A stretch of DNA of 35,596 bases from a virus. Below, in pieces: positions 9,242 through 29,196 of the stretch (its first letter is position 1; each line of letters starts with the position of its first letter). The translations under genes and the position numbers were made by a program. The notes below the pieces were generated by a model. The model had not been told where the DNA came from. It made no database searches and was given only the letters and a program-made list of their open reading frames with translations. The stretch is taken from the IMG/VR virus record IMGVR_UViG_3300033508_000294, positions 1 to 35,596 of that record; one strand, given 5' to 3'.

Positions 9242-9273
9242 TTTGGATTTTTGTTATTTTTTAATTATCTTTG
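9242..9273 (+). promoter_or_regulatory. Bacteroidetes sigma-A-type promoter (TTTG-N20-TATCTTTG)
   Basis: TTTG at 9242-9245, a 20-nt gap, then TATCTTTG at 9266-9273. The ATG at 9292 lies 18 nt downstream. Confidence 0.55.
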
Positions 9274-11323: not shown

Positions 11324-11662
11324 TTATCCTTCAAATGGTGTAAAACCATCTACATCAAATAAATATCCACTATCAACCATTTCAATTCCATCATTAATTT
11401 CTTCAGTATAAACAACAGCAGTTGCAAAATTACCCAAATGTTCAACATAAGTACTAAAAGTTTGCCATACAAATTCATCATCAACACCATCAATCATACC
11501 TGATTCCATATCACCTAAATATTTTACTATTTCTTTTGCAGTTTCAAATTTCTTTTCAAGATTTTTTTCATCATTGAATTTTTTTATTAACTTTTTTAAT
11601 AAAAGATCAGAACCTTCTAAATCAAGTATTTCATTTGATTCATTAAATTTTTTAATTTTCAT
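11324..11662 (-). CDS. small acidic protein with CTS-like leader (MKIKKFNE|S), paralog of the next gene
   Basis: The N-terminus MKIKKFNESNE shares 44 nt of identical 5' end and upstream sequence with the gene at 11687-11938. Confidence 0.5.
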   Translation of the reverse strand: MKIKKFNESNEILDLEGSDLLLKKLIKKFNDEKNLEKKFETAKEIVKYLGDMESGMIDGVDDEFVWQTFSTYVEHLGNFATAVVYTEEINDGIEMVDSGYLFDVDGFTPFEG

Positions 11663-11686: not shown

Positions 11687-11938
11687 TTATTCTACTCTTT
11701 TTATTGAAAATATATATTCATATTTACCAAATTCAGCATTTATATCACCACTAAGTTTTATTTCACCTTCTGCACCAGTTGTATATTCTTCCATAGAAGC
11801 AGACAATTCATATAAAGTATTTTCTAATACATCTTGTATTTCAACTTTTAATCCTTTGAAATAATTATTACTATCATCATCTAAATGTGACTTCATTAAT
11901 TCATTATCTAAATTTTCATTAAATTTTTTAATTTTCAT
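11687..11938 (-). CDS. small acidic protein with CTS-like leader (MKIKKFNE|N)
   Basis: The N-terminus is MKIKKFNENLD. It is a tandem paralog of the gene at 11324-11662. Confidence 0.5.
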   Translation of the reverse strand: MKIKKFNENLDNELMKSHLDDDSNNYFKGLKVEIQDVLENTLYELSASMEEYTTGAEGEIKLSGDINAEFGKYEYIFSIKRVE

Positions 11939-15979: not shown

Positions 15980-16010
15980 CAAAGATAATACAAATAAATG
16001 AAATAACAAA
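15980..16010 (-). promoter_or_regulatory. Bacteroidetes sigma-A-type promoter (minus strand TTTG-N19-TATCTTTG)
   Basis: Read on the minus strand, caaa at 16007-16010, a 19-nt gap, then caaagata at 15980-15987 give TTTG-N19-TATCTTTG. It lies 22 nt upstream of the ATG at 15957. Confidence 0.55.
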
Positions 16011-16315: not shown

Positions 16316-16346
16316 CAAAGATAAGATAAATAAATGTAATAACAAA
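16316..16346 (-). promoter_or_regulatory. Bacteroidetes sigma-A-type promoter, duplicate of the 15980-16010 element
   Basis: caaagata at 16316-16323 and caaa at 16343-16346 are spaced 19 nt apart. The surrounding ~55 nt resembles 15961-16016. Confidence 0.55.
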
Positions 16347-20394: not shown

Positions 20395-20766
20395 TTATTT
20401 TTTTAATTTTCCTAATATTTTATCTAATTTTTGAGCTCTTTCTACTAATAACCTAGTTTCATTATATTCTGTTTCATTTTCATGATAAATTAAGTAATCA
20501 CCTATCACATTAAAATTATGAAAATAAAATTCTTCTATTTCTGTATCACCTCTTAAATAGATACAATCATATCCATTCATAGCAACATCAAAATCTTTCC
20601 CTTTAATGTTATCACTGAACCAATTACATATAGCAGATTTATATAATTTTTTTTCATCGCGTTTTAACATTTCTTCAAAACGATAAAATTCTGCATTAAC
20701 ACAGTTCTTTGGGATTTTCCAAAAACCATGTCTTGACTTCTTTGCTTTAATTTTATATATCCACAT
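20395..20766 (-). CDS. small protein, member of the K-L-K-K-I-K C-tail family
   Basis: The C-terminus is ...RAQKLDKILGKLKK. Its core FHNFNVIGDYLIYHENE is paralogous to the gene at 20942-21295. Confidence 0.45.
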   Translation of the reverse strand: MWIYKIKAKKSRHGFWKIPKNCVNAEFYRFEEMLKRDEKKLYKSAICNWFSDNIKGKDFDVAMNGYDCIYLRGDTEIEEFYFHNFNVIGDYLIYHENETEYNETRLLVERAQKLDKILGKLKK

Positions 20767-20775
20767 ATTTATAAT

Positions 20776-20937
20776 TTAGATGTTATCTTCTGTTAATTCC
20801 ATTATATACATTGCTAATGATTCTGCTGCAAGTAATGAGTACTTTTTTTCTACTCTCTGTTCTGGTGTAAGACCTTTCATACGTTGTAAAAAAACATATG
20901 CTTCAAGTCTAATCTGATTTCTTCTTTTTTCATCCAT
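20776..20937 (-). CDS. small hypothetical protein (not in ORF track)
   Basis: My own translation gives MDEKRRNQIRLEAYVFLQRMKGLTPEQRVEKKYSLLAAESLAMYIMELTEDNI. It fills a 175-nt gap. Confidence 0.3.
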   Translation of the reverse strand: MDEKRRNQIRLEAYVFLQRMKGLTPEQRVEKKYSLLAAESLAMYIMELTEDNI

Positions 20938-20941
20938 ATTA

Positions 20942-21295
20942 TTATAATTTAGATTTTATCTTTTTTAATTTCACCATTCTTTCAAATAATGTTCTATCTT
21001 CATGGTTTTGAAAAAAATATAATGTATTATCAAGTAATTCATAATTAGAATATTCATAAAATTTACCAATTACATGATCAGTAAATATTCTGAATTGACC
21101 TTTACCTACTTCTACTTTAAATTCATTATTATTATTTTCTGAATAAGCAGTTACAATTGCACTTAATAGTTCATGATTCATTGAACTAAGTTTAGCCTTT
21201 ATGTTATAATTAATTAGTGTTATAGGAGTTCCCCATAAACCATTAGGTTGTCTTTTTGTTTTTATAGTATAAGTTATCATTGTGCAAATGTACAA
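20942..21295 (-). CDS. small protein, member of the K-L-K-K-I-K C-tail family
   Basis: The C-terminus is ...RMVKLKKIKSKL. It is a paralog of the gene at 20395-20766. Confidence 0.45.
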   Translation of the reverse strand: MYICTMITYTIKTKRQPNGLWGTPITLINYNIKAKLSSMNHELLSAIVTAYSENNNNEFKVEVGKGQFRIFTDHVIGKFYEYSNYELLDNTLYFFQNHEDRTLFERMVKLKKIKSKL

Positions 21296-21312
21296 ATAAA
21301 AAAAATAAATTC

Positions 21313-21741
21313 CTAATTTTCTTTAAGATAAATACACCTAACAAATGTATTTGGTTTAAATCCAATTTTAGTTATACAATATTCAAATTCTAAATCTTTT
21401 ATATCTTTACCCATTTTTCTTAATATTTTAAGAAGTTTTGTATGTCTTGACCCATTTATATTTATTGATGTAAATAATGTTAATCCAGGTGAACTAGTAT
21501 CTGGATCAACTCTAATTACAAATATTTTATCCTTATGAACATTAGTTGGGTTTATAAATATTGTTTGATTTATACCCCATTTATTTAATTTCTTTTCAAA
21601 AACTTTTACTCCCATTTGTGGAAATTGTGATGTTGAATCAACAATATCTTCAAAATCTATAAACATAAATACTGAATTTTCTATTTTATCTTTAAGTACA
21701 GGTACATATTTTACAATTTTAGTTAAATCAAAATTATTCAT
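21313..21741 (-). CDS. hypothetical protein
   Basis: A 142-aa ORF. Confidence 0.4.
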   Translation of the reverse strand: MNNFDLTKIVKYVPVLKDKIENSVFMFIDFEDIVDSTSQFPQMGVKVFEKKLNKWGINQTIFINPTNVHKDKIFVIRVDPDTSSPGLTLFTSININGSRHTKLLKILRKMGKDIKDLEFEYCITKIGFKPNTFVRCIYLKEN

Positions 21742-21806
21742 ATTATAAAATTCTTTTTATAAACATATAGTATTAAATTGAATATAAGATTAAAAAAAGT
21801 TAATTT

Positions 21807-22769
21807 ATGAATGTATTAAGTCTTTTTGATGGAATTAGTTGTGGACAAATTGCTTTAAATAGAGCAGGAATAAAAATAGATAATTATTTTTCATCAGAAA
21901 TTGATAAACATTCAATAAATGTTACACAGAATAATTACCCTAATACAATTCAATTAGGTGATGTTACTTTATTAAAAGGAAATACATTACCTAAAATTGA
22001 TTTACTTATTGGTGGTTCACCATGTCAAGGGTTCAGTTTTGCTGGTAAACAACTTAACTTTGAAGATCCAAGAAGTAAATTATTCTTTGAATATGTAAGA
22101 TTAAAAAATGAAACAAATCCAACATATTTTTTACTTGAAAATGTTATAATGAAAAAAGAATATCAAGATGTAATATCTTCATATTTAGGTGTTCAACCAA
22201 TTGAGATAAATAGTGCATTAGTTTCAGCACAACATAGAAGAAGATTATACTGGACTAATATTCCAGATGTAAAACAACCAGAAGATAAGAAATTAACAGT
22301 TATGTCTATAATTGAAGATAATATAGGTGGAACTAAAGTTATCTTTGATGAAAATGGTATTTGTAGGTTAAAGGCAAAGAATAAGAAGAATATAATATTA
22401 GAATTTGAAGTACCACCACCTTATTCAATATATGAAGCAAGAACAGATATGGCAAAAATTGCAAGAAGGGAATCAAGAAAATTATATGGAATAGATACTA
22501 ATCCAAGGGGTGTTGATTACAAGGAATATAGGATAAATAAAAAAGATAAATGTAATTGTATTCTTACTTCAAGGACTGAATTAGATTGTATAATAGATAG
22601 TCAATATAATTATAGGCCACTTACTATAATTGAAGCAGAAAGACTACAAACAGTGCCCTATAATTATACAAACTATGCCAGTGATAATCAAAGATGGAAA
22701 ATGTTAGGAAATGGATGGACAGTTGATGTCATATCACATATTTTTTCACATATAAAAAATAATATATAA
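21807..22769 (+). CDS. DNA (cytosine-5)-methyltransferase
   Basis: Motif I LFDGISCG (FxGxG), motif IV GGSPCQGFS (PCQ), motif VI ENV, motif VIII QHRRR and motif X GNGWTV are all present in the canonical order. Confidence 0.85.
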   Translation: MNVLSLFDGISCGQIALNRAGIKIDNYFSSEIDKHSINVTQNNYPNTIQLGDVTLLKGNTLPKIDLLIGGSPCQGFSFAGKQLNFEDPRSKLFFEYVRLKNETNPTYFLLENVIMKKEYQDVISSYLGVQPIEINSALVSAQHRRRLYWTNIPDVKQPEDKKLTVMSIIEDNIGGTKVIFDENGICRLKAKNKKNIILEFEVPPPYSIYEARTDMAKIARRESRKLYGIDTNPRGVDYKEYRINKKDKCNCILTSRTELDCIIDSQYNYRPLTIIEAERLQTVPYNYTNYASDNQRWKMLGNGWTVDVISHIFSHIKNNI

Positions 22770-22773
22770 AATT

Positions 22774-23499
22774 ATGATAAATACTTATGAAGAATATGTT
22801 AATTTGATTAAAGAAGGATTAATAATAACACATCGAATATCAAAATATAAACATCTGATAGAAAATTATTTAGATAGAAATAATATTAAATTCGAAATTG
22901 ATGTTAATAGTACTAATGATACTTTTAAATTAACATTATATGAAAAAGAATTAAATTCATATGAATCAATACTATCTTTGATAAATAATATTGGGTATTT
23001 CCCTTCTTCGATAAAAGTTTTTAGAAATATTAAAGATAGTAACAATGAAAAATATCAAAATTTTAAATATAACTTTGATACAATTAAAGATGAAATAAAT
23101 AATGAAAAATTTATTAAATTAATTTTGTCTTGTGAAGCATTGTTTGATTATGAAGTTTTAAATTTACCATCTATTATTTACCATATATATCCATCAAATT
23201 ATATAAATAAAATTTTAAATCTTGGTCTTATTCCAAAATCAAGAATGAGAAAATCATATCATCCAGAAAGATGTTATTTTACTTATAGTATAATTGATGC
23301 AAATAATTTAATAAAAGAATTTCAACTTAATGATATTAAAGATAACATAGGTCCAATAAACTATTCAATTTTAAAAATTGATTCTTCTGATATGAAAAAT
23401 AAAACAAATGATAAAGATATTAAATTTTTTATTGATCCTAACTCTGTTGGATTTTATACTTACGATAATATCAATCCTTCTTTTATAATTTATCCTTAA
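22774..23499 (+). CDS. hypothetical protein immediately downstream of the MTase, with CTS-like leader (MINTYEEYVNLIKE|G)
   Basis: It starts 4 nt after the MTase stop. The N-terminus resembles the T4 IPIII CTS. There are no recognisable nuclease motifs. Confidence 0.45.
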   Translation: MINTYEEYVNLIKEGLIITHRISKYKHLIENYLDRNNIKFEIDVNSTNDTFKLTLYEKELNSYESILSLINNIGYFPSSIKVFRNIKDSNNEKYQNFKYNFDTIKDEINNEKFIKLILSCEALFDYEVLNLPSIIYHIYPSNYINKILNLGLIPKSRMRKSYHPERCYFTYSIIDANNLIKEFQLNDIKDNIGPINYSILKIDSSDMKNKTNDKDIKFFIDPNSVGFYTYDNINPSFIIYP

Positions 23500-23884
23500 T
23501 CTTCTTTAATTTTAAAGACCTTTGAATTTCTGTTCCTAACATACTTTTTAACATTTCAGATTTTCTTTGAAATGAATCAATTTCTTCTTTATTGTCAAAA
23601 TACTTTTTTAATATTATAATTTTACTAATTATCTTAAAATTCCACCATTTAAAATTTAAAGTATGGATATTCTTATAACCCGAATAAATATTCATTGATT
23701 CTGAAAATCCTTCCTTCATAGTAACAGAATTACTAACAAATCTAGTTTTAGTTTCTTTATTAATATATGGACTAGCATAATAGGAATTACCTTCAATAAA
23801 TTCCCAATTTTCAGGATGATTTAAAGCATTCTTTAACAAATCAATATAAACTTTTTCTATACTTCTGTCTACTTGTGTTTTCAT
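23483..23884 (-). CDS. small protein, K-L-K-K-I-K C-tail family (paralog A)
   Basis: It carries SPYINKETK and WWNFK motifs. The C-terminus is ...RSLKLKKIKDKL. Confidence 0.5.
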   Translation of the reverse strand: MKTQVDRSIEKVYIDLLKNALNHPENWEFIEGNSYYASPYINKETKTRFVSNSVTMKEGFSESMNIYSGYKNIHTLNFKWWNFKIISKIIILKKYFDNKEEIDSFQRKSEMLKSMLGTEIQRSLKLKKIKDKL

Positions 23885-24263
23885 AATTTTTTCCTTATTT
23901 TAGTTACTTTTAAAAATCTATCCATATTATAACCTAATGCATCTTTTAATTCATTGTTAAGTTTTTCATCTTCATTTTTTTTCTATCCATTATAGTATCT
24001 AAATACATTGAATGTATTAATATACTAGTTTTAAAATCCCACCAAGAAATTTTTAATTCATAAATTCGATAATCATTTTTATATATGAATACTTCAAAAT
24101 TATTCATATCGTGTTCTATTTTAAATTGGATTTTAGTTTCTTTATTAATATATGGACTAGTAAAAGTATAAACAACATCTGAAGATTTCCATTTTTCAGG
24201 TGTTAATAACATTTCTTTAAGTAATTCCAAATATACCTTTTTTAATTCCTTATCTACTTTCAT
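23885..24263 (-). pseudogene. frameshifted member of the same family (paralog B); conserved C-tail encoded in the -1 frame after an A8 run
   Basis: The ORF 23946-24263 carries SPYINKETK and WWDFK motifs but ends early (...KMKMKNLTMN). The sequence downstream, in another frame, encodes ...DALGYNMDRFLKVTKIRKKL*, matching the family C-tail. The frame switch coincides with the T8 (coding-strand A8) run at about 23979-23988. Confidence 0.5.
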
Positions 24264-24673
24264 ATTTTTTTCTTATTTAACTTTTTCATTATTCTAATTA
24301 ATTTTATTGACCTCATTATTAATTTTTCTTTAGTATTAAGGTCAATAAACATTTGTGTTAAATTACAATTTTTTGAATAATCTGTTAACCAACCATTAAT
24401 ACTAAATGGTACATGTCTTATTTGATTATCTTTTAATATTGCATTGATTAATTTCTTTTGTGGTTTAAAAAATGTACCAACATTATAACTTGGTAAATGT
24501 GTTTTAGTTAATGGTTCAGTATCACTAATATGTTGTTTTACAAAATTTAATCTCAATTCAAGATTACTGATATTAAGAATTAATTTAGCTTGTATTAATG
24601 TCTTATCATTCCCAAAGGAATAAAAACTTTCATTAGTACCAATAATATAATACTTATTATCAATATTTTTCAT
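24260..24673 (-). CDS. small protein with related basic C-tail (RSIKLIRIMKKLNKKKI)
   Basis: Overlapping start and stop codons place it in the same operon-like string. Confidence 0.45.
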   Translation of the reverse strand: MKNIDNKYYIIGTNESFYSFGNDKTLIQAKLILNISNLELRLNFVKQHISDTEPLTKTHLPSYNVGTFFKPQKKLINAILKDNQIRHVPFSINGWLTDYSKNCNLTQMFIDLNTKEKLIMRSIKLIRIMKKLNKKKI

Positions 24674-25083
24674 TCTAATTTCTTTTTAATTTTAGATAAT
24701 TTTAAAGATCTATCCAAATTTGCACCCAATGACTTTCTCAATATTTCATCAGTATCTCTTGCTTTTTTCCATTTATCTTTGACATCCATAAATCTCTTTA
24801 ATCTTTTTAATAATTTTCTTGTTTTAAAATCCCAAAAAGATAGTTCTAATGTATAAATAAGACTACTCTTGTTATAAATATCAATCTGTGAACTATCAAA
24901 ATCACCTAATGATGTACAGGTTTTAAAAAATATTTCACTATCATCACTAATACAAGGACTTTTATATTCCTTATATGAATATTGTAAATTAGTCCATTTT
25001 TCTTGGGTTTCTAATAAACCTCTTAAGATAGTTAAATAAATATCTTTAGTTTCTTTGTCAATATCTAATCTTACCTTATCCAT
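24670..25083 (-). CDS. small protein, K-L-K-K-I-K C-tail family (paralog C)
   Basis: It carries SFWDFK. The C-terminus is ...RSLKLSKIKKKLE. Confidence 0.5.
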   Translation of the reverse strand: MDKVRLDIDKETKDIYLTILRGLLETQEKWTNLQYSYKEYKSPCISDDSEIFFKTCTSLGDFDSSQIDIYNKSSLIYTLELSFWDFKTRKLLKRLKRFMDVKDKWKKARDTDEILRKSLGANLDRSLKLSKIKKKLE

Positions 25084-25084
25084 A

Positions 25085-25489
25085 TTATTTATCTTTATTA
25101 GGTGTTAATGTTCTTTTAATTCTACTCATTAATTTTTGTAATTTATTTCCTCTACCAGCACTTACTCTGAATGTAGTTGGGTCTTTAAAAAAATTTTCAG
25201 ATTCTTTAAGTGTATCACGCCAAAAATCAGTGTAACCTGAGAAGGAATCTATTAGTATAAGCATAAATATATTTTCCCTTAATGCAGTTCTACATAAGGT
25301 TTGTAATTTTTCCAATGTCCACCTAGTATCCTTATATAAATATATGTAAATACTCTGTTCTCTAATAAAAAAGAAAATCATTTCTTCTTCATTTTTTACT
25401 TCATACATATAGTATTCCAATTCATCAAGAATTCTGGTATTGGATAAATCATCTATATTTCCATATAGTTGTAAAAGGTAATGTGTCAT
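25085..25489 (-). CDS. hypothetical protein (first gene of the paralog string)
   Basis: A 134-aa ORF ending ...KLQKLMSRIKRTLTPNKDK. A Bacteroidetes-type promoter lies upstream. Confidence 0.45.
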   Translation of the reverse strand: MTHYLLQLYGNIDDLSNTRILDELEYYMYEVKNEEEMIFFFIREQSIYIYLYKDTRWTLEKLQTLCRTALRENIFMLILIDSFSGYTDFWRDTLKESENFFKDPTTFRVSAGRGNKLQKLMSRIKRTLTPNKDK

Positions 25490-25507: not shown

Positions 25508-25539
25508 CAAATATACAAATAATTTTAAATAAATACAAA
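25508..25539 (-). promoter_or_regulatory. Bacteroidetes sigma-A-type promoter (minus strand TTTG-N20-TATATTTG)
   Basis: caaatata at 25508-25515 lies 18 nt upstream of the ATG at 25489, and caaa at 25536-25539 lies 20 nt further. Confidence 0.5.
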
Positions 25540-25586: not shown

Positions 25587-25823
25587 ATGACAGTAAGCAT
25601 TAGAAATACAAGAGAAGAAAATTTCAAGAAAGAAATTGTCAATTTTACAGATGAACATTATAAATTAGCAAATGATATATATAATCAATTTGGTAATTAT
25701 GGACCATTATTAGTTAGTCAAGAAGATGATACATTATGTTTTGTAGTGAATTTAGCAACCAATAGAGTAGATAAAGAAATAGGAACAAATTTATATAAAA
25801 TAAAAATAATTAAAATAAAATGA
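25587..25823 (+). CDS. hypothetical protein
   Basis: A 78-aa ORF whose stop overlaps the dUTPase ATG (ATGA). Confidence 0.4.
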
Positions 25824-26422
25824 AGAAACAAGTAGTAAAAGTATTTAATAAGGGTACAAATGATTTACCTAATTATTCAACAGAATTTGCAGCAGGATTT
25901 GATATCAGAGCTGATTTAAGTAGGATTAATCAATTCAGTGATTTAATGGGTAATGATTCATTATCACTTACAATACCAGAAGATGGTAGTCCTAAAGTAA
26001 TTACATTATTTCCTAAAGGTGGTAGAGTATTAATTCCAACTGGATTACACATATCTATACCAGATAATTATGAATTACAAATTAGACCAAGAAGCGGTCT
26101 TGCATTGAAAAATGGTATAACTATTATGAATAGTCCAGGTACAATTGATTGTTTTTCAGAAGATTCATCTATTAAATCAATTAATGGTGATATTAATATA
26201 AAAGACTTAAAAATTAATGATGTTGTTTTATCAGTAAATGAAAATTTAGAAATTGAAAAAGATATTATAACTGCTATTATTGATAAAGGTGTGTTAGAAA
26301 TTAATATTATTGAAACAGAAGATGGTATATTAGAAATTACTGATAATACTTTAGTTTACACTGATAGAGGATTAATAAAAGCAATTGAATTAAAAGAAAA
26401 TGATAATATTTTACATTTTTGA
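25820..26422 (+). CDS. dut: dUTPase N-terminal extein (motifs I-III) fused to N-terminal half of a split intein
   Basis: The dUTPase motifs are AAGFDI (I), [12 protein letters not shown] (II) and NSPGTID (start of III). Cys then begins an intein-like block, CFSEDSSI (block A-like), and the 90-aa segment ends at a stop codon. Confidence 0.8.
26150..26419 (+). other. N-intein half (about 90 aa) of a naturally split intein
   Basis: The half starts at Cys111 straight after the GTID of dUTPase motif III. Block A reads [10 protein letters not shown]. Confidence 0.7.
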
Positions 26423-26474
26423 TATTTTCCACCTCTATAATCTTTATATATAATAGAAAATAATTATAGGAGAA

Positions 26475-27362
26475 ATGATAGAATGTAAAATATGTGGACA
26501 TCAAGTAAAATATAGATTAATTGAACATATTCAAAAAACACATAAATTAGATATAGATTTTTATAAAGAAAATTTTGGTGATGTTATATCTAAAGAATAT
26601 AAAGAAAAAGTTAGTGAAAAATCTAAAGAAAAATGGCAAGAAGAAGAATATAGGGAAAAAACTAAAAAATCAAGAGAATGGATATATAATGATATAGAAC
26701 TTCAACAAAAAAGAACAAAATCTATTTTAAAATATTATTCTGATGGTGGGAAAGTTTGGAATGATGGATTAACAAAAAATGATGATGTAAGATTAAAATC
26801 AATAGGTGAAAAAAATAAAGAACATTTAACAGGAAGAACCAAAGAAAATTATGAATATCTTAAAATACATAGTGATTTAATGAAAGATAGGTGGGAAGAT
26901 AGTAATATATTAAAAGAATGGAAATCAATACAAAATAATGAATACAAAAAAGATATATGGAAAAGAAAAATATCAGAAACAATATCAACTAAAATATTAA
27001 ATGGTGAATTAAATACATTGAGTTCTTTTAAAAGTGGTTGGTATATAAATAGTAATAATAAGTATTGGTATTGTTCAAAATTAGAAGAAGAATCTATGAT
27101 ATTATTTGATAAATATAAATTAGATTGGACAAATAAACACGGTATTAGAATAGAATATTTTTTAAATGAAAAAAGACATTATTATATACCAGATTTTTTA
27201 ATAAAAATTAAAAATATTCATTATATTATTGAAATGAAAGGGTGTGATTGGGATGGTGATACTAAAATTAAAAAAGAATATGCAGAAAAAAAATTAAAAA
27301 ATTATAATATTTTTTATAATTTAAATGATTTAGAAAATTTTATAAACAAAATAATAAACTAA
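26475..27362 (+). CDS. free-standing endonuclease nested between intein halves: C2H2-like Zn finger + Vsr/PD-(D/E)xK-like nuclease domain
   Basis: The N-terminal CKICGHQVKYRLIEHIQKTH is a C-x2-C...H-x4-H finger. The C-terminal YYIPDFLIKIKNIHYIIEMKGCDWDGD resembles the Vsr core (PDIVF...IFVHGCFWHGH). It has its own AGGAGA Shine-Dalgarno sequence 6 nt upstream. Confidence 0.65.
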   Translation: MIECKICGHQVKYRLIEHIQKTHKLDIDFYKENFGDVISKEYKEKVSEKSKEKWQEEEYREKTKKSREWIYNDIELQQKRTKSILKYYSDGGKVWNDGLTKNDDVRLKSIGEKNKEHLTGRTKENYEYLKIHSDLMKDRWEDSNILKEWKSIQNNEYKKDIWKRKISETISTKILNGELNTLSSFKSGWYINSNNKYWYCSKLEEESMILFDKYKLDWTNKHGIRIEYFLNEKRHYYIPDFLIKIKNIHYIIEMKGCDWDGDTKIKKEYAEKKLKNYNIFYNLNDLENFINKIIN

Positions 27363-27367
27363 TAAAA

Positions 27368-27475
27368 ATGAAAAAGACAAAAATTTTATCAATAAAAAGA
27401 GAAAAGAAACAAACCTATGATATTACAGTTAATAATAATCATAATTTCTTTTGTAATAATCACTTAATACATAAC
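27368..27475 (+). other. C-intein half (36 aa)
   Basis: MKKTKILSIKREKKQTYDITVNNNHNFFCNNHLIHN resembles the DnaE C-intein (..VYDIGVERDHNFALKNGFIASN). Confidence 0.7.
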
Positions 27476-27676
27476 TGTGATTATAGGGGTGAAGTTGGAT
27501 TAATTATAGTTAATACAGACCCTAATAAATTATTTGAAATAAGACATGGTGATAGATTAGGACAAGGTGTTTTGAATCAAGTAGAACAAATAGAATGGGA
27601 AAAAGTTTATAGAGTAGAAGATTTAGGTGAAACAGTAAGAGGTGAAGGTGGTTTTGGTCATACAGGTAAAAACTAA
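27368..27676 (+). CDS. dut: C-terminal half of split intein (36 aa) fused to dUTPase C-terminal extein (motifs III-V)
   Basis: TYDITVNNNHNFFCNNHLIHN matches intein blocks F/G and ends in HN. The +1 Cys is followed by DYRGEVGL (rest of motif III), RLGQGV (IV) and RGEGGFGHTG (V). Splicing would give the contiguous motif GTID-CDYRGE. Confidence 0.8.
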   Translation: MKKTKILSIKREKKQTYDITVNNNHNFFCNNHLIHNCDYRGEVGLIIVNTDPNKLFEIRHGDRLGQGVLNQVEQIEWEKVYRVEDLGETVRGEGGFGHTGKN

Positions 27677-27688
27677 AAAATTAAAGAT

Positions 27689-27985
27689 ATGATAATATTT
27701 AGAAATAAATCAAAAAATACACCAGTAGTATTACATCATACAGTACCACAACATACAAGTAGTCCAATAATTACAAATACACCACATAGTGCAACAACAC
27801 TTAATATCAATGGACAACCTATGTATGCAAGTGCTGTTACATATAGTTGGTTTGATCCAGAAGAAGCATTATTAAAAAGGAAAAAAGAATTGATGGATGA
27901 ATTTGAACAGAATCCAGAATTATTCAGTGAAATAATGGTAGAATTAAGACAAAGGAAGATTAAAAAATTAAAAGAAAATATCTAA
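27689..27985 (+). CDS. hypothetical protein
   Basis: A 98-aa ORF with a basic C-tail (RQRKIKKLKENI). Confidence 0.4.
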   Translation: MIIFRNKSKNTPVVLHHTVPQHTSSPIITNTPHSATTLNINGQPMYASAVTYSWFDPEEALLKRKKELMDEFEQNPELFSEIMVELRQRKIKKLKENI

Positions 27986-28200
27986 TGGGATTATTTGTAT
28001 CATATTGTAAAAGATGTAATAGTGCACAAAATTGGTTTATTCATTTAAAAGATGGAATCAAAAAATGTCAAAATTGTGGACATATAAACACAGAAAAAGA
28101 TATGTATGATTCTTTGTGGAATGAACATTATTGGGATGATTATAGATTATTGGAAAGTAGAAAAGAAAAAATCTTAAAATTAAAAAAGTCAATTCATTAG
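27985..28200 (+). CDS. small zinc-ribbon protein
   Basis: CKRC...CQNCGH forms two CxxC pairs. The C-terminus is ...KILKLKKSIH. Confidence 0.45.
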   Translation: MGLFVSYCKRCNSAQNWFIHLKDGIKKCQNCGHINTEKDMYDSLWNEHYWDDYRLLESRKEKILKLKKSIH

Positions 28201-28213
28201 AATTGACTTTTTT
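28182..28213. terminator. bidirectional rho-independent terminator
   Basis: An A-run, the hairpin agtcaattc-atta-gaattgact, then T6. It overlaps the stop at 28200. Confidence 0.75.
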
Positions 28214-29144
28214 AATTTTCCCAATTTGGGTAATAATTTTGAGTAGAAGATAATTTTATTTTCTTTGCGTCTTCTAAATTCATTATATTTTTGAAATCAT
28301 TTCTTATTATATTAGTTTTAGCCAAATCTAATAATTTTATAAATTTTTCCATTTCATCATCATTAGTATTGTATTGATTATTTAATTTATCCATATAAAT
28401 AATACCTGATTTATTAAGTTTTTTATTAATATTTCTCATAAAATCTTGTATTTGTTGATCATTTAATTCTAAAGTATTATTATTAATTCTTCTTTGAATT
28501 GATCTTCTATTAAAAAATGATATAGGAGAATGTTGATATTGTTCCCAGATAGTAATAAATTGATATAATAAATTTTTATCAGTAATTAGATTCTCTACTT
28601 TAAAATGTTTTATTAAAAGTATATAAGATAATATTTCTACTCTTTTATTTTTATCATATTTTTTAAATGAATGAATAAATGCACCCATTTCTCTATCATC
28701 TGCAAAATATAACATAGTTTCTAATAATCCAATTTTATTAGAAATTTTTTGGAAGAAATTTTTAATTTGATTTAATACTGTATTATTTTCATAATCAATT
28801 AATAATATATTCCTATCTATTGTTGATTGTAATACATGTATTAATTCATGATTTAATGTTGCTTTACTTGGTGCCTTTAAATAAATTCCTACACTATTAG
28901 AGTATTTTAAATATGCTGTTTTATTAATAAATTTAGGACTAATACCAATTACTATGAAAACATATGGCCAATCTTTTAAAAAAGGAAACTCTAATGATAA
29001 CTCTTTAATGCTAAAATTATATCTTTTTAATTTATTATCATTCATATATTCTATAATATATGTTGATAATTTAATAATATCTTTATTTATTCCAGTATCA
29101 GTAGAAGATTTTTTTTCTAATAAAAATTCATTAAATGTTTTCAT
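28212..29144 (-). CDS. HExxH zinc metalloprotease-like protein with CTS-like leader (start revised to Met15 of the track ORF)
   Basis: It contains NHELIHVLQ (HExxH). The track ORF start at 29186 lies inside the terminator hairpin of the upstream gene. The internal Met at 29144 gives MKTFNEFLLE|KK, matching the leader family. Confidence 0.55.
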   Translation of the reverse strand: MKTFNEFLLEKKSSTDTGINKDIIKLSTYIIEYMNDNKLKRYNFSIKELSLEFPFLKDWPYVFIVIGISPKFINKTAYLKYSNSVGIYLKAPSKATLNHELIHVLQSTIDRNILLIDYENNTVLNQIKNFFQKISNKIGLLETMLYFADDREMGAFIHSFKKYDKNKRVEILSYILLIKHFKVENLITDKNLLYQFITIWEQYQHSPISFFNRRSIQRRINNNTLELNDQQIQDFMRNINKKLNKSGIIYMDKLNNQYNTNDDEMEKFIKLLDLAKTNIIRNDFKNIMNLEDAKKIKLSSTQNYYPNWEN

Positions 29145-29154
29145 AGTCTTATAT

Positions 29155-29196
29155 ATAAAAAAAATAAGATGATTATTTCTAATCATCTTATTTTTA
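29155..29196. terminator. rho-independent terminator
   Basis: An A-run, the hairpin aagatgatta-tttc-taatcatctt, then T5. It lies just downstream of the stop at 29213. Confidence 0.65.

Follow-up and report, generated by a model that had tools for sequence, protein, structure and literature searches.

Tailed genes in the contig

The IMG/VR record IMGVR_UViG_3300033508_000294 is a 35.6-kb viral contig (35,596 nucleotides, 24% GC), which was analysed over its full length and is referred to below as the window. The window encodes a contractile-tail sheath that shares 49% identity with that of LR756501, an uncultured phage of 735 kb, and that matches Lak megaphages and a Flavobacterium jumbo phage more weakly. 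These matches mark the contig as part of an AT-rich huge phage of the 'Mahaphage' kind, which probably infects Bacteroidota. Nine proteins of the window, about one in six, terminate in the same short basic element, R-x-x-K-[LIV]-x-[KR]-[IL]-x-x-x-[LI], which we call the tail and number from its Arg as position 1; as a peptide it is exemplified by GTEIQRSLKLKKIKDKL. The tail is a portable C-terminal α-helical module, selected at the protein level, in AT-rich huge phages related to 'Mahaphage' genomes. The DNA compared comprised these 35.6 kb and ~20-kb pieces of relatives, whose loci are given by L numbers.

Gene A (20395..20766, minus strand; 123 amino acids, aa) carries the tail RAQKLDKILGKL at 20404-20439, two residues before its stop codon, and its orthologues in L001, L030, L003 and L040 have all kept it. 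Its weak paralogue, gene B (20942..21295, minus strand; 112-117 aa), ends in RMVKLKKIKSKL at 20945-20980, at the stop itself. The G-F-E-D-C operon follows on the same strand. Gene G (25085..25489; 134 aa) has its tail, RGNKLQKLMSRI, at 25118-25153, ten residues before the stop, and gene E (24260..24673; 137 aa) has RSIKLIRIMKKL at 24278-24313, five residues before the stop. The other three genes form one family: gene F (24670..25083; 137 aa) with RSLKLSKIKKKL at 24676-24711, gene D (23881..24263) with RFLKVTKIRKKL at 23884-23919 in the -1 frame, and gene C (23483..23884; 133 aa) with RSLKLKKIKDKL at 23486-23521. Gene C is the last gene of the operon and is convergent with 22774-23499 (+). On the plus strand, gene I (27689..27985; 98 aa) has the tail RQRKIKKLKENI at 27947-27982, and gene H (27985..28200; 71 aa) has RKEKILKLKKSI at 28159-28194. 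Gene H is likewise the last gene of its operon, convergent with 28212-29186 (-), and gives weak zinc-ribbon-type matches below the Pfam cut-offs. In a tenth protein, the product of gene J (21313..21741, minus strand; 142 aa), the motif is internal rather than terminal: RHTKLLKILRKM at 21412-21447 is followed by a 32-aa extension, and the orthologues in L001 and L003 have it internally as well. An earlier note on this sequence had described the tail in seven open reading frames (ORFs) and a related ending in gene H. All of these are present in the genes to which they had been assigned, and gene I, which was absent from that list, adds one more.

The frameshift that had been reported in gene D was confirmed. 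The 0-frame ORF (23946-24263) reaches an early stop and encodes 105 aa without a tail. Within it lies a run of eight A residues at 23975-23982, a canonical A_AAA_AAA slippery site, where one extra A or a -1 slip restores a 127-aa tailed paralogue of C and F. Six other assemblies, each from another sample, contain the identical run (seven assemblies in all), which is therefore not a local assembly error. Gene D could be either a recent pseudogene or a site of programmed slippage.

Chance, composition and selection

The tail was searched for with the regular expression [RK]..[KR][LIVM].[KR][IL]...[LI] and with a hidden Markov model (HMM) built from 24 tails. In the 58 called proteins (11,222 aa), the expression matched eight times within the last 25 residues and never internally. 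Among six-frame ORFs of at least 40 aa it found nine sites, eight of them no more than 10 residues from a stop codon, and frameshifted D adds one tail to these. Shuffled controls gave 0.02 C-terminal matches when whole proteins were permuted and 0.085, with a maximum of 2, when only the tails were. Because the expression was derived from the same data, the positional bias and the outside controls weigh more. A profile search of related phages, as the earlier note had proposed, was run with the HMM and returned 36 C-terminal matches and one internal match in the 219 proteins of the related loci. In unrelated loci, the HMM matched one of 515 proteins at <30% GC and none of 651 at 30-40% GC. All matches of at least 7 bits lay within 12 residues of the C-terminus, save those of the J family and one second copy. 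Low-complexity Lys/Leu bias, the artefact against which the earlier note had warned, does not account for these figures, with eight to nine C-terminal occurrences against no internal one in the window and an enrichment of ~85-fold over other AT-rich loci. At the DNA level, a degenerate form of the motif was present at three sites of the window against an expectation of 0, and a scan of 2.9 million IMG/VR contigs gave 34 occurrences; the strict DNA pattern had no match in IMG/VR. Chance look-alikes in AT-rich cellular genes, such as the C-terminal helix of tryptophanyl-tRNA synthetase, appeared as single cases and not in clusters.

Codon usage was compared among orthologues in the window, L001, L030 and L003. 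More than one codon is used in 18 of the 47 invariant amino-acid columns (TTA/CTA/CTT/TTG, AGA/AGG, AAA/AAG and ATA/ATT), positions 5, 8 and 12 exchange L, I and M between orthologues, and all three codon positions differ at the variable positions of the tail. Selection on the tail thus appears from these alignments to act at the protein level; since orthologues hold the residues while the codons change, the tail behaves as a protein-level signal.

These data bear directly on the proposal that the tail is a by-product, whether of an A/U-rich region for initiation or coupling, of a DNA recombination linker or of low complexity under AT bias. The codons for K, I and L are A/U-only in this genome, and seven of the nine tails directly precede or overlap the next start codon, with overlaps of the ATGA type. 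Moreover, in L001 (9541-9591) and L030 (8816-8898), the last 15-28 codons of a deleted F/D-type gene, which encode its tail, are all that remains of that gene directly upstream of the E orthologue. Either E is expressed with the help of such a remnant, or tails are favoured end points of deletions, and the observation fits a secondary DNA role of the tail as translation-initiation region of the next gene. However, C and H stand last in convergent operons with no gene downstream and are tailed nonetheless, so the tail is not a translational-coupling element. The synonymous and L/I/M changes at conserved positions, which include C-containing Leu codons, are also at odds with a by-product, as are the codon-periodic conservation with fully variable x codons and the lack of the motif in other AT-rich loci. 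Finally, the invariant Arg1 is encoded at least 33 nucleotides before the stop, too distant for a ribosome-binding site. A mere by-product is therefore largely refuted and scarcely credible as an explanation.

Anatomy of the tail and the fuller module of gene I

Residue conservation was assessed over the 24 tails and 68 sequences of the gene I family. The core reads R1-x-x-K4-[LIV]5-x-[KRQ]7-[ILF]8-[KR]9-x-K11-[LIM]12. Arg1 and Lys4 are invariant in all 24 tails and in all 68 family sequences (92/92), with only I, L or V at position 5 and only I, L or F at position 8. Position 7 takes K, R, Q or N, position 9 mostly K or R, and Lys is predominant at position 11. Although these proteomes contain about three times as much Lys as Arg, the tail distinguishes strictly between the two, which suggests that particular side chains are recognised and not positive charge in general. 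In A, B, H and L001_15100, the alignment of the tails extends upstream of the Arg, as hydrophobic-hydrophobic-x-E-x-R, and so all tails look like versions of one ancestral helix.

On a helical wheel, positions 1, 4, 5, 7, 8, 11 and 12 share one face of ~160 degrees, and positions 2, 3, 6 and 10 vary freely. The aliphatic stripe formed by positions 5, 8 and 12 is narrow and has the a/d spacing of a heptad. The hydrophobic moment of the tails ranges from 0.15 to 0.56, with a mean of roughly 0.36 compared to 0.30 ± 0.15 for shuffled tails; the mean hydrophobicity is ~0.1, with three aliphatic residues and no aromatic ones. Of the 'amphipathic basic tail' described in the earlier note, the basic character therefore stands, and the amphipathic character is true only in a weak sense. 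The net charge of the last 14 residues is +2 to +7, which disfavours parallel self-association. The motif is trailed by a variable stretch of 0-12 residues and, together with the internal motif of J, this argues against recognition of a free C-terminus, be it as a degron or through a termination-linked effect on the nascent chain.

Structure prediction, another of the checks that had been suggested, was performed with AlphaFold 2 and returned a helix for the tail in both proteins modelled. In C, an α/β core is followed by the tail as helix 118-132; this fold had no match in the PDB. In I, the N-terminal half is disordered and is followed by two helices, 57-74 and 76-97, with a predicted local distance difference test (pLDDT) score of 91-96. 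The tail of I is thus the second helix, and the end, of a confidently predicted helix-break-helix domain of ~40 aa (27857-27982, plus strand; PEEALLKRKKELMDEFEQNPELFSEIMVELRQRKIKKLKENI, with the domain sequence also given as NPELFSEIIVELRKRKIKKLK). The consensus of this module is ..ELMDEFEQ-NP-ELFSEIIVELRKRKIxKLK, its second part being also represented by ELFSEIIVELRKRKIKKLK.

Gene I has 44 relatives, and a profile of its last 42 residues found 78 clusters among 1.84 billion representatives. The module lies at the extreme C-terminus in 77 of the 78 clusters, in proteins of 39-148 aa. The N-terminal parts of this family are mutually unrelated; transmembrane helices occur among them, as do Gly-X-Y repeats and a small domain of the W-D-G-x-x-W type. 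Some members, of 39-48 aa, consist of the module only (P0110, with 39 aa, P0103 and P0104).

The tail is carried by mostly unrelated orphan proteins

Across six related loci, the tail is carried by ~19 families that are distinct by BLAST, with proteins of 41-183 aa. Their N-terminal parts include zinc-ribbon-like (weak), α/β and multi-spanning membrane domains as well as Gly-X-Y repeats; in L063, three consecutive multi-spanning membrane proteins end in the tail. Every intact orthologue in every family has kept it. Compared without their tails, C, D and F are still clearly paralogous (E-values of ~1e-10 to 1e-13) and A and B weakly so, and for E, G, H and I no relatives were detected among the remaining tailed proteins of the window. 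This grouping replaces the two subfamilies of N-domains that had been proposed. When the tail-less domains were compared by hhalign, only A and B were related (probability 73%), on profiles that are shallow enough for very remote homology to be possible. The central claim of the earlier note, a shared C-terminal module on diversified N-domains, is thus upheld. A single hyper-divergent paralogue family was considered and set aside, given the range of sizes, the different architectures and the single A-B link in these shallow profiles.

No tail is found on the enzymes that can be recognised in these loci (Dcm, Dam, dUTPase and lysozyme), and tailed genes lie together with those for dUTPase and Dcm in operons preceded by a promoter-like site of the host type. 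The family of C, D and F has only seven relatives among 5.8 billion proteins; these are orphan genes restricted to the lineage, and the region in which they lie gains and loses genes rapidly. No tails were found in the structural region of LR756501, no match to C or to the I module was obtained by tblastn against 50,697 GenBank phage records, and a protein-pattern search for C in IMG/VR gave no relatives. Scans of the tailed window proteins, the tailed proteins of other loci and the I module against Pfam-A and PHROGs v4 yielded nothing significant, and the PDB contained no structural relative of the tail, the I module or the tailed proteins. A weak match of gene G to the minimal CRISPR polymerase (mCpol, Pfam E-value of 0.04) was dismissed, since the orthologues do not conserve the supposed catalytic motif. 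No description of the motif turned up in literature searches for a basic helix shared by the C-termini of phage proteins.

Possible functions of the tail

We tentatively favour the reading that the tail is a one-face docking helix which brings many small effectors to one acidic partner. The docking face would be made up of Arg1, Lys4, Lys7 and Lys11 beside the aliphatic stripe, and docking would occur either in the manner of a K-coil or by insertion of the helix into a groove. The partner would be common to all carriers and negatively charged, the likeliest candidate being an acidic, helical surface on a protein of the phage or of the host or on a nucleoprotein complex. Docking would gather small, fast-evolving and probably early-expressed effector domains at the same place. 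Several points weigh against this reading. No partner was found, and no mirror-image acidic motif is present in the proteome of the 35.6-kb window. The conserved stripe spans at most two heptads, a short stretch for a coiled coil that is to be stable. In members of the I family, the stripe could be buried on the first helix with the basic face alone exposed, which would favour polyanion binding, and the tails of the L063 membrane proteins are equally compatible with a helix at the membrane surface. Proteins that consist of the module only may indicate that the module is itself the active part and not an address tag.

The basic face (R1, K4, K7, K9 and K11) might instead bind the DNA or RNA backbone, the stripe packing on the preceding helix or on a second copy, so that small proteins are concentrated on the nucleoid, the phage DNA or RNA. 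The net charge of the last 14 residues speaks for such a tether, as does the position of the tail after zinc-ribbon-like (weak Pfam) or C2H2-like knuckle sequences in H, L104 and L028, and the I module, confidently predicted as a helix-break-helix, could hide its hydrophobic stripe within itself. A precedent is the Lys-rich tail at the C-terminus of TubY, which binds DNA non-specifically (PMC7762940). However, non-specific backbone binding would require neither an invariant distinction between Arg and Lys nor strictly aliphatic residues at positions 5 and 8 on unrelated N-domains. The N-domains, with the exception of E, are approximately neutral or acidic without the tail, so that affinity would rest on ~12 residues, and no match to DNA- or RNA-binding families was found in Pfam or the PDB. 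On balance, a polyanion tether is somewhat unlikely. A helix that recruits soluble small proteins to the cytoplasmic face of the inner membrane would suit a basic C-terminal helix, and the Heliquest-type discriminant, driven by charge, exceeds 1.34 for nearly all tails. The three membrane proteins of L063 and the membrane-anchored members of the I family would, moreover, place their tails at the membrane surface. We nevertheless consider membrane targeting unlikely: the hydrophobic moment barely exceeds that of shuffled tails, hydrophobicity is low with three aliphatic and no aromatic residues, and lipid binding tolerates the exchange of Lys and Arg, but R1 and K4 never vary. In members that are already anchored in the membrane, the helix would be redundant.

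The a/d spacing of the aliphatic residues 5, 8 and 12 raises oligomerisation through a short coiled coil, as dimer, trimer or tetramer or by co-assembly of different tailed proteins. Collagen-like repeats usually need a C-terminal trimerisation element, and some members of the I family have Gly-X-Y repeats upstream of the module. Yet the charge of +2 to +7 and the flanking Lys residues should cause repulsion in parallel homomers, at most two heptads are conserved, an Arg occupies a core position, and there is no reason for unrelated proteins to have an identical oligomerisation helix; self-assembly is accordingly quite improbable. We regard as very improbable a C-terminal degron or timer that marks early proteins for degradation of the ClpXP, FtsH or Lon type. 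The C-terminal position, the basic-then-hydrophobic ending and the probable early expression of the genes agree with a degron, and the ClpX C-motif 2 of MuA (RRKKAI) is likewise basic. Against it, the variable trailing residues and the internal motif of J show that a free C-terminus is not needed, the 12-residue helical pattern has its invariant positions far from the end, unlike known short degrons, and the module-only proteins would be nothing but degrons. A broader scheme, which we consider distinctly unlikely, is that the tail is a clade-wide address label, borne by a sixth or more of the small proteins and leading to one phage-built structure. The destination might be the inside of a vault-like shell of major vault protein (MVP), a replication factory or some other compartment. 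Such a label would be independent of a T4-like N-terminal capsid-targeting signal in the same genome and would complement it, and slippage in D would yield labelled and unlabelled isoforms.

Comparison with known systems

The helices of MinD and FtsA and the tail of TubY are likewise short, basic C-terminal helices separable from the rest of the protein, and the Lys-rich tail of TubY binds both DNA and membranes (PMC7762940). Unlike the helices of MinD and FtsA, the phage tail has neither pronounced amphipathicity nor a broad hydrophobic face. In contrast to all three, it has an invariant Arg1 and Lys4 and occurs on ~19 unrelated protein families within one lineage instead of in one family.

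One short terminal peptide on many unrelated cargos is the logic of microcompartment encapsulation peptides, encapsulin cargo-loading peptides and the T4 capsid-targeting sequence, with none of which the phage tail has sequence similarity. No microcompartment or encapsulin shell gene is present nearby, and among the genes of the contig only an MVP homologue is shell-like; it lies 16 kb away and is tied to the tailed genes only by the shared contig. In the DNA available for L001, L003, L008, L033 and L040, there is no shell gene. The T4 signal, borne by internal proteins of that phage, is, furthermore, N-terminal and cleaved, with a prohead-protease site (L/I-x-E) after about 10 residues, whereas the phage tail is C-terminal and lacks such a site.

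Designed E-coil/K-coil heterodimers and natural docking helices, such as the docking domains of polyketide synthases, also have aliphatic a/d positions flanked by Lys, an arrangement expected to pair with an acidic helix, and they dock independently of the attached domain. Compared to a K-coil, which takes at least three heptads, the phage tail has at most two, with an Arg in a core position and no acidic partner helix in the window. A single weak match to the Pfam family 'Docking' (E-value of 0.066, in one of 21 members) was rejected as noise. SAP, HeH and Rho_N, which are DNA-binding motifs of the helix-extended-helix type, are, like the I module, small two-helix modules with an E-L-R triplet followed by basic residues, and one of 21 members gave a weak Rho_N match (E-value of 0.01). 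SAP domains have a Leu at +3 after the Arg and an R-G-L turn; the hydrophobic register after the Arg differs in the phage tail, in which Lys4 is followed by the aliphatic position 5. For SAP, HeH and Rho_N there was no consistent profile match and no structural match to the I module. Degrons of the ssrA or ClpX C-motif 2 type are recognised at the very C-terminus, and the phage tail does not have this feature. The tail thus belongs to the general kind of portable terminal interaction peptides and to no named family.

Hundreds of small orphan proteins are encoded by huge phages, and the tail provides an experimental handle on them. It occurs on about a sixth of the proteins in this region and on dozens of unrelated families in the phage clade, so that one 12-residue module with two invariant residues could lead to a common destination or target for the whole class of orphans at once. 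Should the target be a protein hub or a compartment, the tail would be a new sorting signal in bacterial viruses; should it be DNA, RNA or a membrane, the tail would be a new minimal binding element. The motif is also a practical marker for annotation in metagenomes, where no current Pfam or PHROG model recognises this class of proteins.

Other features of the window

Promoter-like sites of the Bacteroidetes type (TTTG-N19-21-TAnnTTTG) occur seven times in the window compared to 3.2 expected, and four of them lie directly upstream of genes or operons in the right orientation. One, TTTG-N20-TATATTTG at 25508..25539 (minus strand), is located just upstream of the G-F-E-D-C operon, and the other three, at 9242-9273 (+), 15980-16010 (-) and 16316-16346 (-), are likewise directly upstream of genes. 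Two of the promoter-like sites are nearly identical (TTTGTTATTnCATTTATTTnTnTTATCTTTG). As far as such motifs tell, they are consistent with a Bacteroidota host and with transcription of these units by the host polymerase.

The dUTPase gene (25820-27676, plus strand) is fractured. Its first ORF (25820-26422) covers positions 21-64 of the dUTPase profile and then runs into an N-intein-like stretch that starts with CFSEDS. Its last ORF (27368-27676) opens with a C-intein-like segment of 36 aa (..YDITVNNNHNFFCNNHLIHN|C), after which come positions 67-129 of the dUTPase profile. Between the halves lies a free-standing ORF (26475-27362; 295 aa) with a weak match to TnsA-like endonucleases. The dUTPase is uninterrupted in L001, L003, L030 and L040, with 175 aa. 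The arrangement looks like a putative split intein with a free-standing homing endonuclease.

The MVP homologue (1583-4063, minus strand; 826 aa) matches the Pfam families MVP_shoulder (1.6e-26) and Vault_3 (2.9e-10) and adjoins the genes for the tail tube and the sheath. MVPs of phages are described in one earlier report, a 2023 preprint (10.1101/2023.11.10.566534).

A common N-terminal motif, MK(T/N/I)(F/K)(N/K)(E/Q/F)F.. or, in a narrower form, MK(T/N)FN(E/Q)F, opens several proteins that are not otherwise related, with examples in MKTFNEFLLEKK, MKNFNQFVNEG and MKIKKFNES. In the window the motif is found at 397-1167 (+), 11324-11662 (-), 11687-11938 (-) and 28212-29186 (-, from an internal start at codon 15), and elsewhere at 6497-7408 of L001 and 3799-4212 of L008. 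It resembles the capsid-targeting sequence of T4, MKTYQEFIAE, with its L/I-x-E protease site. The N-terminal motif may represent a second shared signal in the same phage. In the 256-aa product of 397-1167, this motif is duplicated internally (FVNEGIRDKMLPKSEDE and FVNESIRDKMSPKSEED), and the C-terminal part contains ankyrin repeats (Pfam Ank, 4.9e-06). At the start of the contig, the ORF at 86-400 (plus strand; 104 aa) comprises only the middle part of an electron-transfer-flavoprotein domain (Pfam ETF, 3.8e-11, positions 92-163 of 181), and may be a truncated auxiliary gene or a remnant.

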